From positions 310,248,001 through 310,312,000 of the forward strand of contig OZ024742.1 in NCBI GenBank assembly GCA_964016885.1: DNA of 64,000 nucleotides. Direction: 5' to 3'. The stretch comes from Eledone cirrhosa (Eukaryota). Of this stretch, positions 12,585 through 53,491 are shown piece by piece; positions within the stretch are counted from its first letter, which is position 1; every line of letters starts with the position of its first letter. The position numbers were made by a program, and so were the translations under genes. Under the pieces are notes generated by a model that saw only the letters and a program-made list of their open reading frames with translations, had not been told where the DNA came from and ran no database searches.

Positions 12585-12735
12585 TAGGAAAATAGTCAGG
12601 ACCCCGACGGCTGAGCTCCGGCCGTTTCGACAGCTAGATCCTGACTCTTTTCCTATTACCCACTCTACTACCCAAAGTATCGAGTACTCTGGTGCGTTAT
12701 GGTCCATCTGGTTTCTTACCACACTTTCTTTGTTT
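12585..12735 (+). mobile_element. (TA)n-inserted inverted-arm element, family C (HHR 3' half)
   Basis: Short IR taggaaaatagtcagga/tcctgactcttttccta plus a tail homologous to the 32724 and 47835 copies. (TA)n on both sides. Confidence 0.75.
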
Positions 12736-14151
12736 ATATATATATATATATATATATATATATATATATATATATATATATATATATATATGTGTGTGTG
12801 TGTGTGTGTGTGTGTGTGTGTGTGTGTGTGTGTGTGTGTGTGTGTAAAATACCCGTAACGTAACGGTTCGACAAACAGAGATTGATAAAACGATAAACTG
12901 TGTCGATATGATCGTCTATACACCCTCCCCAAGTCAATGCCCCAGAATGACCGAAGGCTAATCACTAAAACCAGTGAAAGAATAAAATAATACATTTGAT
13001 AACAAGGTAGGTGTGTTACCTTCCCATCCTGTGAAAGATTGTTGGTTTCAACAGATCGGGTTTCAATAGTATACAGGTGAGATTCGTCAACGAGAGAAGG
13101 GATATGGTGTTTCATCTTATCTTACCTGTAATTACAATGTTTAGTTGGTTTAGTATTATCTCGTTTTCTAACTACATATTACACATACGCACAAACACAT
13201 ACATGTACACACACACGCACATACACGCACAAGCTCATATACGCACAAGCAAATACACACACTACAACATATACACACCGGTACATACACTGGCACATAT
13301 ACCTGTACTAATTTATTAGTACCTGTGACAGGTTAATCAAGGTGAAATACGGCTATCTATAAGTATAAAAATACACGACACATACACATATGTATAACCA
13401 CATATATATCACACACTGTCATATATATATATATATACACACACACACACACACACATATGTATATATATATATATATATATATATATATATATATATAT
13501 ATATATATATATATATATATATATACTCACACACACACACACATATTCATAGGTGCGTGTCACAAATTGTATCACTTTTATATATAATTTTTTCAACTTG
13601 ATTAATCTCTGACAAGTAGAAATATGTTAGTATGCGTGAGTGAGAGAACGTGTAGATGTGTATACGTGTGTGTCGTATGAGTAATTAGGTATAATTAGGG
13701 AGGTAATTGAGTTGGAACAGTTGTTTTTTTGTTCAACATGGATACTGATGTCTCTCTCTCTCTCTCTCTCTCTCTCTCTCTCTCTCTCTCTCACATATAT
13801 ATATATATGTATGTGTACACACACACACACACACACACACACACACACATATATATATTTATCTCTCTCTCTCTCTCTCTCTCTCTCTCTCTCTATATAT
13901 ATATATATATATATATATATTTATCTATATATATATATATATATATATATATATATATATACAGTATATTAACAAATGGAAACTATATTTATAAAACCCT
14001 ATTTATTTCATTATACATATTTAAATATAACCTCTACATATATATATATATATATATATATATATATATATATATATATATATATATATACAAATATATA
14101 TATATATATATATATATATATATATATATATATATATATATATATATATAC

Positions 14152-14262
14152 GTACTCTGATGTGTTGACCAGAGGTAAATAATGTATTGGAGATCGAATG
14201 ACGCAACCTCAAGCGATTAGCGACCTCTAGACTCACCTAATCAACGAAACAATTGTCAGTAC
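14152..14262 (+). ncRNA. Type I hammerhead ribozyme motif, U9 core variant
   Basis: GTACT-CTGATGT-GTTGA[long loop]TCAAC-GAAA-CAATTG-TC-AGTAC. Second copy at 52582-52692. Confidence 0.75.
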
Positions 14263-14805
14263 TTTAAATAAAGCCGTTATTGTACAGCCAACCATGTTAC
14301 TCTTCATCCTTTAACTCTCTTACTGCTCCCCCGTTCTCTCTGTTTCTCTTACCTTCTTTCGTCCCCTCTGTCAGTTAACACTTTCTCTCGACTGACCTCT
14401 TCCTCGCACTTCCACTCACTCACTCTCTGTTTCCCCCCTTCTCACTTCCTCCCGTTCGCTAGTAGTGGGGTTCCTTCTTTCTCACACCGCATTCACGGCG
14501 TACGGTCTGCTTCTCTGACCGCTCATGAAATTCACCCGGCTTATGCTGATCGGATAACTATCATGTTGCTTGCTGTTTTCCCAAACTTCGGTTTGCTTTC
14601 CTTCTGTTGTTTACTTGTCTCACTCGCTTTACGCGTTTCACTTGTCCCAATAGCTTATTTTAGTTATTGCTCGCACCAACCTGAGGTATCTGATTTTTAA
14701 TGCGATGAAATACCAATGATGGTTGGCAAATCACTGATGAGGGAATAATTTTATAATATGTAATCTATGTGCAACCATGCAGTATTCTTCTCCCCTTGTT
14801 TTTCA
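14152..14805 (+). mobile_element. (TA)n-flanked non-coding element with several HHR-like motifs (family D)
   Basis: Bounded by (TA)n. The 5' part matches 52582-52746 and the 3' part matches 44015-44220 (minus). Confidence 0.65.
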
Positions 14806-15789
14806 TATATATATATATATATATATATATATATATATATATATATATATATATAGTAGAATAATCGAGTATCGAAAAATCGGCGCACGAGTTCACGATA
14901 AACAAAATTCGATATGAGCGGCAGAGGGCTCAATAATTCAGATAAATCAGAGCTATAACTATCGTTAAAATACCGTCACACATAGAACAAGTCTATAATC
15001 AACCGTACGACCGAAAGATTGCGATCTGGAAGATTCGGGACATTCAGAAAAAAATATCAAAAAATCAATAAATCAAATGAATATATATATATATATATAT
15101 ATATATATATATATATAATATATATATTCCTCCGAATGAAACAGTTCTAGTCCTGTAGAAGCCATTTCTATATTAAATATTTATACTCTGCTATGTATTT
15201 AGTACATTGGTTACCCCCCGATTGAACGCGACACACACACACACACACACACACACACACACACACACACACACACACACACACACATATATATGATGTA
15301 TGCGAGTATACGTATATACAGGATGAGTCGTAATTAACCAGGCAGTCCATGACTGATACTGCCCGGGTTTTTTACAACTCACCTTTTATATTGAATGTCT
15401 ATAGTCTGTTTCTATCTATGCCTGACTCCTTGTCTCTCATCCTCTTTCCCTCTCTTACAGTCATCGGCAGGCAGAATTGTCATTGCTGTTTAAAAAGAGA
15501 TCGCATTAAAAAGTGCTACGCCTTCAGTTGTTCTACATTCTGAGTTCAAATCCCGTTGAAGACGTCATTGTCTTTACACCTTCAGGGTCGATAAAACGTG
15601 TAAGACCGGAGCGAAAACCACTGTTCGTCGGTTAGTTTGAGCTCGATAACATACCTATATGTCTTCGTCGAAAAGTGATCTCCGATACGCACTGTGGTGT
15701 GCTGCATGGCAGGATTGAAACTCAGTGTTGTGAAGACTTAGGCATTCGTTTCCTCAAGAAAAGCATGCGCAGTGCATTTTGCGCGTAAA

Positions 15790-16300
15790 TGGAGTCGCAC
15801 TAATGGTGAGCTCAAGTATATCGAATCAGCTTTTGCAGGTGATGAATGCATGAGGCTGAATTGAATTCAAGAATTGCTAATACAATATGTCAGCTTCAGC
15901 ACTCGATCACCTGAAGAACAAAGGTAGATGCAAAAGTCAAACTCACAATCTTCAATTCTGTGTTCGTACCTAACCTTACCTAAGATCACGAATCTCTGAT
16001 CTCGCAGATTAGTTAATCACTCTAGGTAGAGTTATTACTTCTCTGCATCAAGAGATCAGAGTTCCGGTACTACAAACGCGCGGTTAGGATGTATAAGGAA
16101 AAATTAACATTGGAAAGATTTCATGGACAAAGCCAACCAGCAGGAGACCCAGATATAGACCACGACCAGGAATGTTGGATAAAAGCCATAAACTCGTTTG
16201 GTCGTGCTTGGGGACTCAGTCAAATCATTTAGAAACGATTGATTTTGATTGGACTCTCTGGAAAGTGTGTCAGAGGAATCTGCCCACACGACCCTTTCAG
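15790..16300 (+). pseudogene. Decayed RTE-clade LINE, ORF 3' region
   Basis: Translates to AKVKLTIFNSVFVPNLT*DHESL, LLLCIKRSEFRYYKRAVRM and RPRPGMLDKSHKLVWSCLG, resembling the RTE C-terminus (KLSIY.SIFVPTLTYGHE / LLLHIERSQLRW.GH..RM). Stops and frameshifts present. Confidence 0.7.
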
Positions 16301-52049: not shown

Positions 52050-52451
52050 TGTCCTTCGTCCCTTCTACTGGAATCCGCTAGACAGCGCTGGCAGCCACCT
52101 TTTCAATATTCATAGTTGGGCTATCAATATATATTTATTAAACATACCATATAATCTTTATAAATTCGCATACATGAATATATATATATATATATATATA
52201 TATATATATATATATATATATATATATATCATGTTATGCACATGTTACATATCTTTGAAATACGTATAATAAAATAAATAGGCATGGACTAAAGTAACCG
52301 TTTTATTTGTTTATTAAATATATATATATATGTGTGTGTGTGTGTGTATGTGTGTATGTGTATGTAACTCGGGTTGAATCAATATATGTATGTATATATA
52401 TATATATATATATATATATACATATATATATACACACGCACATATATATAT

Positions 52452-52746
52452 AGTTAAAGAAAGAAGAGTAACATGGTTGGCTGTACAATAAGAGCTATAT
52501 TTAAAGTACTGACAATTGTTTCGTTGATCTGGTGTGTTTTCTATATAAGTCTTGCCTCGAGTGAATGATTTTCATATCTATGTACTCTGATGTGTTGACC
52601 AGTGGTAGACAATGTATTGGAGATCGATTGACGCAATCTCAAGCGATTAGCGAACTCTAAACACACCTGATCAACGAAACAATTGTCAGTACTTTAAATA
52701 AAACCATTATTCTACAGCCAACCATGTTACTCTTCTTTCTTTAACT
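52452..52746 (+). mobile_element. Family D-related inverted-arm element
   Basis: Arms about 52452-52540 and 52660-52746. Contains the U9 HHR at 52582-52692. Confidence 0.75.
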
Positions 52747-52763
52747 ATTATTACTCCAACCGT

Positions 52764-52883
52764 CTGAGTTCAAATCCCGTCGAGGTTAACTTTGCCTTTC
52801 ATCCTTATCGGGTCGATAAAGTAAAGTACCAGTAATGTACTGAGTAATTGCTGGCCTTGTGCCACAAGTAGAAACAATTATTA
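52764..52883 (+). mobile_element. SINE family 1, 5'-truncated
   Basis: Runs from the B-box to the tail. Confidence 0.8.
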
Positions 52884-53409
52884 CTCCAAGTATAACCTGC
52901 ATAGAAATGACCGCGAACTCACTGCATAACTATGGAAACATCTTGTTGAGTCAAACAAAGCCGTACGTTAAAACTATCCACGACGCGGAGTACTCATAAC
53001 CTCTAACTGGATTACCTATAACGATAACTTGTTATTCCATATATATATATATATATATATATATATATATATATATATATATATATATATATATATATAT
53101 ATATATACTATAAATTATGTCCATAGAATCATTTGATAAGATATATACTCTATTTCCTCTCCCAATTAGCATAATCAACCACACACAAAAGAAAAAAAAC
53201 AATTAAACCAGGCTATAAGATTAAAAGGCACCTATGAAGAAATAATAGATAAATAAACGACAGCCATCTATTCGCGATCAACCGCTATAGAATATTTACC
53301 CAGCATTTCAATAGTACGTGGAAATCGATTAAATATATCGCCAACCATACACAATTAGGTATAAAATTAAAGTTAGAAGAAAAAATGCATATACACATAC
53401 CAGGATTAG

Positions 53410-53491
53410 GTTTCTACCCTTCAAGGTTTCGTTCACTTTCGGAAATATCCTATCAAGGATAAATTCTCGAGCTTCGAACTCATCAGGAAAC
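53410..53491 (-). ncRNA. Canonical type I hammerhead ribozyme motif
   Basis: GTTTC-CTGATGA-GTTC[...TATCCT tgat AGGATA...]GAAC-GAAA-CCT tgaa GGG-TA-GAAAC. Confidence 0.8.

Follow-up and report, generated by a model that had tools for sequence, protein, structure and literature searches.

What are the non-coding segments, most with motifs of the hammerhead ribozyme (HHR), that break into (TA)n microsatellites along a 64-kb stretch of the 3.0-Gb Eledone cirrhosa genome (positions 310248001-310312000; hereafter the window, in whose own numbering features are given)? Our analysis makes it highly probable that they are copies of Penelope-like elements (PLEs) inserted into (TA)n. Families A, B, C and K are truncated, often inverted 3' ends of elements encoding a reverse transcriptase (RT) and a GIY-YIG endonuclease, as L likely is too, and the non-coding families D, E, G and J were likely moved by PLEs in trans. 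The inventory, obtained by reading the microsatellite-collapsed sequence and by BLAST against loci fetched from the genome, holds 20 inserts of 11 families (A-H, J-L), about 8.0 kb in total, spanning 12587-53741. A preliminary description had counted roughly ten inserts interrupting or abutting (TA)n and had taken them for small PLE-mobilized, (TA)n-targeting elements. Their adjacency to TA, their link to PLEs and the targeting hold up; the count is larger, and the inserts do not form one class. As classified here, five families are PLE ends (L likely), four (D, E, G and J) are non-coding and two (F and H) have no traced parent. The community is real, and its kinds are mostly known already.

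The families that we assign to autonomous PLEs occupy the following positions.

12587..12734, + strand: family A, divergent subfamily; inverted arm and tail of a Hydra-clade PLE 3' end, with the 3' half of the HHR only
29642..29721, + strand: family A fragment; half HHR
32715..32940, - strand: family A, palindromic; 80-nt tail, half HHR
47837..48029, - strand: family A, palindromic; 80-nt tail
17256..18257, + strand: family B, Hydra-clade PLE 3' end; inverted arm 17256-17464, GA-rich spacer 17465-17950 between the two arms, then sense arm and tail; a pair of minimal HHRs of type I, with cores at 17354 (-) and 18066 (+)
29060..29627, + strand: family B, palindromic; HHR core at 29158 (-), second core U4C
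30345..30579, - strand: family C, Neptune-like PLE 3' end; minimal HHR, core at 30469
50793..50973, - strand: family C, old decayed relative
14151..14300, + strand: family K, short; A9U HHR 14157-14257
52453..53038, + strand: family K, Hydra-clade PLE 3' end; inverted arm, A9U HHR 52587-52687, tail of about 230 nt split by a SINE-like (short interspersed nuclear element) insert
29849..30322, + strand: family L, palindromic and likely the 3' end of a Hydra-clade PLE; two HHR-like motifs with U4A

Extension of long copies in the 5' direction, which the preliminary description had proposed as a check, reached open reading frames (ORFs) for RT and GIY-YIG in families A, B, C and K, and the endonuclease part in L. 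One of 29 A loci had an upstream ORF and was extended into a full element. This parent (L061) is about 3.2 kb long and lies between TA tracts, with RT and GIY-YIG in broken frames, a U3-A8 HHR and a 5' inverted pseudo-long terminal repeat (pLTR). Endonuclease sequence occurred at a fixed upstream distance in 4 of 29 B loci and 8 of 29 K loci, and the K parent retains an open frame of 631 codons in L226. For L, the endonuclease part only was found upstream, in 2 of 19 loci; 4 of 29 C loci were extended, all encoding a Neptune-like ORF.

The A, B and K parents comprise a single ORF, RT followed by a C-terminal GIY-YIG domain. The Hydra-type parent ORFs carry the motifs RW[KR], DKT, CxCx5C, CxxC..E and CxH that define the Hydra clade in section 11 of PMC8557442 and lack CCHH; each broken copy carries only part of this set, and the linker is decayed in the A copy. 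By eye, these ORFs resemble Hydra-1_Obim. Against Pfam, the B endonuclease matched GIY-YIG below the cut-off (E 5e-4), and A and K gave no match. Neptune and Nematis were dropped as placements for A, B and K in favor of the Hydra clade as defined there. The C parent ORF has DKG, a CX2-5CxxC linker and an endonuclease read by eye as CCHH. From these motifs we conclude that A, B and K derive from autonomous Hydra-clade PLEs, of which they are the ends, truncated on the 5' side and in many cases inverted, that L is likely the truncated end of one, and that C is the 3' end of a Neptune-like PLE.

A genome search with the K ORF returned 70 scored matches, about 45 of them free of internal stops and nine in 808-aa frames. 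Four fetched 808-aa Hydra loci carry K-like pLTRs 72-76% identical to the K insert of the window, at both ends in two of the loci, and this intact family has the same two 3' ends as K (see below). Intact Hydra ORFs are therefore present, and with them the PLE machinery is intact in this genome. Among the fetched loci, L291-L296 hold a young Hydra family with intact frames of 790-872 aa and a U4C ribozyme core, and L066 and L070 hold other, non-Hydra PLE ORFs nested in the same TA tracts.

A second group of inserts is non-coding.

53107..53741, - strand: family D; about 685 nt per unit, in tandem at other loci; HHR of canonical type I at 53415-53486
28501..29009, + strand: family E; about 700 nt per unit, in tandem at other loci; HHR of type I at 28712-28830, its stem II domain 95 nt long
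14640..14804, + strand: family G, older subfamily; permuted HHR of type SGC, predicted cut after 14690
43990..44412, - strand: family G; unit of 616-625 nt (tandem elsewhere), inverted arm, SGC HHR, predicted cut after 44121 (-)
26046..26912, + strand: family J; 1.5 units of a 591-nt repeat, U3-A8 HHR
43000..43820, unstranded: family J, two-armed (inverted and direct); two complete U3-A8 HHRs

We classify D, E, G and J as non-coding head-to-tail units that are retrozyme-like. Their tandem periods are 591-595 nt (J), 678-685 nt (D), 683-707 nt (E) and 616-625 nt (G), with one ribozyme per unit. The longest ATG frames in doubled units are 75 aa in J, 37 aa in D and 56 aa in E, the three families covered by this coding test. 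With respect to the retrozyme class, the HHR is of type I in D, E and J (with a variant core in J) and of type SGC in G. In one J insertion (L225), TA tracts enclose five inverted units and three direct ones, each with a ribozyme. All families, these four included, might alternatively be pLTR remnants of autonomous PLEs, their tandems being partial-tandem pLTRs or local duplications without any retrozyme cycle. Five families do trace to ORFs, only the best-ranked 19-30 loci per family were covered, and tandems of D, E and G were observed as dimers only. We nevertheless regard this alternative as improbable: the L225 array contains no ORF, none of 29 D, 29 E, 30 J and 19 G loci has an upstream ORF at a fixed position, and J has 7,047 exact 27-mer matches in the genome (none for the reversed control in the same pattern search).

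Over both arms of the L225 array, J units show 0-1 nt differences, with a 16-nt duplication in one of them, compared with 5-33 nt between unrelated loci. This homogeneity is consistent with a single template, most simply a circle, having been copied repeatedly. The circle is proposed from DNA sequence; the arrays might instead come from a linear multimeric transcript or from gene conversion after insertion, and a homogeneous source array would leave the same pattern. Such an origin seems doubtful to us but worth keeping in mind, as private variants are common to the inverted and direct arms and neighboring loci differ. A search of sequencing runs for J returned six runs from four organisms, none listed as RNA.

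The ends of the inserts tie both groups together. In the window, (TA)4+ lies within 25 nt on at least one side of 20/20 inserts and on both sides of 14/20, an adjacency that is circular because inserts were chosen beside TA. We therefore turn to genome copies found by sequence, in which (TA)4+ follows the 3' end in 60/62 copies of A, 19/30 of B, 27/41 of C, 23/37 of D, 29/39 of E, 17/22 of K, 9/11 of L and 6/9 of H, compared with 15/50 and 7/53 for an abundant SINE-like repeat of about 200 nt that served as a control (one copy, 52760-52885, lies inside the family K tail) and 4% for random positions. The flank enrichment anticipated in the preliminary description is thus evident. TA was present at the two ends of J in 10/25 and 12/35 cases, the example misses being mostly tandem continuations, and after 0/2 ends of F; G had one scorable end in this count, and a separate count of end positions found 23 TA-abutting G ends at a single position.

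Two fixed 3' ends, one belonging to the arm and one to the tail, recur in families A, B, J, K and L. By position, TA-abutting 3' ends numbered 62 and 28 in A, 9 and 13 in J, 22 and 20 in K (after removal of a row at 14,005, an artefact of TA in the reference), and 23, 11 and 11 in L. In A, an inverted arm is present in 19/29 copies, and all these arms end at the same point, 80 nt short of the 3' end. Snap-back at stem II was not supported as the cause of the A inversions, as long copies turn elsewhere. The expected layout of an inverted or tandem arm followed by a 3' tail was borne out, with tails of about 50-230 nt in place of the 30-90 bp given previously.

It is also conceivable that the elements produce (TA)n, by slippage or by telomerase-like tailing, instead of targeting it. 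The 3' ends pass directly into TA, no target-site duplication is readable, and PLE RTs are related to telomerase (PMC4209133). This explanation is quite unlikely in our view; it does not readily account for the inserts with TA on both sides or for different families nested within the same tracts, and (TA)n is the insertion preference of Hydra and Naiad elements in PMC8557442.

We next consider the ribozyme motifs, including those of the two families whose parents were not traced.

44531..44996, + strand: family F, palindromic; Hydra-style minimal HHR, both motifs mutated
15128..15230, + strand: family H fragment; half HHR
31049..31243, unstranded: family H, inverted and sense; Hydra-style type I HHR, decayed in this copy

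A type I HHR descriptor returned 11 window matches at a score of at least 8, compared with 1.04 in 100 dinucleotide shuffles; at scores of at least 11 and at least 13 the figures were 7 versus 0.13 and 4 versus 0.01. Counted by reading, six complete type I motifs have a strict canonical core (three in B, one each in C, D and E). If natural core variants are allowed, the number rises to 14, with the addition of one U4C motif in B, two A9U in K, three U3-A8 in J and two U4A in L, and G contributes two permuted motifs. The U3-A8 core is known from Schistosoma PLEs (PMC4209133). Within their families the variant cores are fixed: they occupy 29/39 unique rows in L, 37/44 in K and 18/18 in J. A U4C change is tolerated in the HHR core. 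The earlier figure of more than ten complete motifs thus applies with variant cores and not with the strict one. The type I fold claimed for most inserts is present in canonical form in B, C, D and E and in variant form in J, K and L; G is of type SGC, and the window copies of F and H are decayed. A whole HHR is present in none of the four A copies, including that at 12585, and 3/29 genomic A copies reach the HHR core. Stem III is palindromic, as had been stated for all, in B, C, E, F, J and K, and is a looped hairpin in A, D, H and L.

Stem covariation among genomic copies, which the preliminary description had named as a requirement, was detected in the three families for which formal pair counts were made (subsets weighted toward divergent copies: 15 locus and 2 window copies of G, from 22 unique copies found; 15 and 1 of H, from 22; 11 of 28 of D). 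In G, 8/26 pairs were double-changed (0/500 shuffles). The D alignment is 94% paired, with 3/14 pairs double-changed and covariation in five cells, a level reached in 0/500 shuffles, and the H alignment is 83% paired, with 4/13 pairs double-changed and a score reached in 4/500. For E, compensatory changes relative to a sister family were read by eye. Single-sequence folding gave z values of -2.7 for B, -3.0 for E, -1.3 for D and -1.1 for K, and -2.3 for a J stretch that does not include the 3' part of the ribozyme. Locus flanks contain at least ten further HHR families (L033, L034, L049, L094, L108, L110, L149, L178, L226, L230 and others), among them another U3-A8 family and variants whose core has G at position 6.

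Family G departs from the type I architecture, and we conclude from its sequence that it is a variant form of the non-circularly permuted (type SGC) hammerhead, a predicted ribozyme. Its blocks run in the order cleavage site, GAAA and core (S-G-C), and all conserved core bases, including H17, are present. An SGC descriptor matched both window copies (two matches at a score of at least 8.5 versus 0.15 in shuffled sequence). Across the 17 aligned copies, 91.2% of cells pair; the 8/26 double-changed pairs compare with 3.1 in shuffles, a count that is not a probability because the structure was drawn from these related sequences, and with only 1-3 when the alignment is slid. Four of seven stem I pairs are double-changed, as are two pairs in each of two extra helices; stem III is 98.8% paired, with one-sided changes only. 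Stem II is not a direct helix: the strands of blocks G and C each pair with an upstream strand (97% and 76% paired). H17 and stem II spoke against reading G as a decayed motif of type I. Elsewhere, L057 holds a second, diverged motif of SGC order unlike G.

Naiad PLEs are described in PMC8557442 as being without a canonical HHR ("HHR_half_core"). By eye, the published Naiad_Ovul 3' end shows the SGC order, linkers and helices of G, as does the record that precedes it (Naiad_Obim by file order). We lean, if only slightly, toward the view that an active permuted hammerhead exists in animal genomes, that it is the ribozyme "missing" from Naiads and drives retrozyme family G (on the order of 100,000 copies, from 7 in 200 kb), and that G together with J would show small RNA circles being copied into (TA)n by PLE RTs, with synthesis beginning at two fixed points.

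The variant-core motifs (U4A in L, A9U in K, permuted in G) could instead be inactive relics or signals for RT or packaging. Metazoan PLE HHRs are poor cleavers in vitro, L folds no better than shuffles, and G needs an extra strand for stem II, with one helix only 76% paired. We consider this unlikely given the fixation of the cores by family and the retention in G of every catalytic block and H17.

The inserts probably arose as follows. The PLE endonuclease would nick (TA)n through its Cys linker, and RT would prime at the tail end on the nicked tract; a second priming at the arm end would generate the inverted arm. Early stops would yield short dead copies, and in A synthesis may mostly stop within the ribozyme. 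The HHR would cut multimeric transcripts down to unit length; G would do so via its type-SGC fold and is itself likely descended from a Naiad-type 3' end. The J unit, and probably those of D, E and G, would circularize, and tandem arrays would result when the RT goes round the circle several times. Every insertion would leave TA on both sides, and tracts could go on gathering elements.

Several observations weigh against this account. By BLAST, D, E, G and J have no sequence link to an intact PLE in the fetched loci and eight Hydra loci, their low-identity matches being to sister non-coding families only; we therefore infer mobilization in trans, resting on shared ends and target. No parent was traced for F or H among the loci covered, and D, E and G have a single 3' end only. 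The SINE control is itself TA-enriched (15/50), the loci were sampled from TA-rich neighborhoods, and C ends frequently continue into (CA)n. At the level of pairs, covariation is not better than in shuffles for D (67/500) or H (160/500); from 12 K copies, RNAalifold returned nothing beyond the inner domain of stem II, and the minimum-energy folds of C and L lack the HHR (z +0.25 and +0.92). Moreover, only one of nine predicted retrozymes cleaved in vitro in bioRxiv 10.64898/2026.07.22.740005.

The window is not an exceptional place. Twenty sampled stretches (10 kb each, at round-number positions) contain 23 inserts in 200 kb (A 4, C 2, D 1, E 1, G 7, H 1 and L 7; none of B, F, J or K), compared with 20 in the 64 kb of the window, where (TA)n makes up 8.0% of the sequence versus 4.8%. 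The window is about 2.7-fold richer in inserts, yet the density once considered possibly undescribed is roughly genome-typical. Extrapolation from 23 per 200 kb gives about 350,000 inserts genome-wide (Poisson range about 220,000-520,000). B had 38 initial candidate matches; each of A, C, D, E, G, K and L had 1,433-3,359.

The window is otherwise microsatellite-rich, with 34% GC, and no gene-like long reading frame was found in it. Hammerhead families were absent among the 150 Rfam matches listed of 399, which are microsatellite-driven and of miRNA type, none at gathering score. The TA-flanked unique segments 12846-13130, 18291-18900 and 50056-50167 had no matches among the fetched loci and were excluded from the inventory; the last has short inverted ends. 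More repeat families with copies in other loci lie at or near TA at 14856-15080, 13962-14037, 21218-21294 and 53790-54198, with no HHR identified in them. A fragment at 45400-45900 resembles Mariner transposase by eye. On the - strand, 37175-37603 is a frame of 142 codons that resembles the restriction-like endonuclease end of an R2/R4-type long interspersed nuclear element. An N gap of 200 bases spans 21685-21884.

By our estimate, PLE ends and retrozymes account for a few hundred thousand small inserts of this genome, which standard HHR descriptors miss in part. A permuted hammerhead in an animal retroelement, if true, would contradict the description of Naiads as devoid of hammerheads, and type SGC, found in metatranscriptomes, would then occur in genomes as well. 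Together, the intact 808-aa Hydra ORFs and the young non-coding units offer a system for studying the proposed rolling-circle reverse transcription of retrozyme RNA, and the same pairing suits study of how the PLE inverted arm and tail originate. In a search of openly available papers we found neither SGC hammerheads from animal genomes nor cephalopod retrozymes described, and the same search did not find single-template J arrays in print. The repeat library of PMC13282606 may hold these families; its main text, in the part available, does not mention ribozymes.

Much of the community has precedents. Already known are Hydra PLEs of Octopus that target (TA)n and bear an HHR, and likewise U3-A8 cores and retrozymes. 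Craig et al. 2021 (PMC8557442) list Hydra-1_Obim as preferring (TA)n and having an HHR, and PLEs as a rule carry inverted pLTRs, to which a tail may be added. The Hydra-clade C-terminal endonuclease-bearing (EN+) PLEs of that paper share with our inserts the RWK/DKT/CxCx5C/CxxC/CxH motifs, (TA)n, the 3' HHR, 5' truncation, inverted pLTRs and optional tail. Unlike them, several families coexist here in place of one, with long stem II domains, tails of 50-230 nt compared with 30-40, and U3-A8, A9U, U4A and U4C cores where the listed Hydra HHRs are canonical. Neptune PLEs (PMC8557442) resemble the C parent in DKG, the CX4CxxC linker, a Cys/His-bearing GIY-YIG domain and a minimal palindromic HHR, but C ends in mixed (TA)n/(CA)n and is placed by motifs alone.

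Animal non-LTR retrozymes (PMC7229834; bioRxiv 10.64898/2026.07.22.740005) are, like D, E, G and J, non-coding and head-to-tail, with one HHR per unit and coexisting PLEs, and the unit lengths observed here fall within the 51-972 bp range of the preprint, which in its available text sampled no mollusc. In contrast to known retrozymes, our units form PLE-type two-armed insertions in (TA)n, carry minimal or variant HHRs in place of canonical ones, and are known from DNA. Type-SGC HRIMA-1 (Eckert et al. 2023, PMC10085705) shares with G the order site-GAAA-core and stems I and III that covary or are conserved; it comes from metatranscriptomes, whereas G belongs to an animal genome and a retroelement; in G, an upstream strand seems to bridge stem II, and a further pseudoknot is predicted. 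Naiad PLEs (PMC8557442) have the (TA)n preference and, by eye, the SGC layout of G, but G is non-coding, and the likeness is one of layout. Finally, the minimal U3-A8 HHR of the Schistosoma Cercyon PLE (PMC4209133) shows the same core covariation as A and J, in which stems II and III are longer and, for J, the ribozyme lies within a young tandem element.

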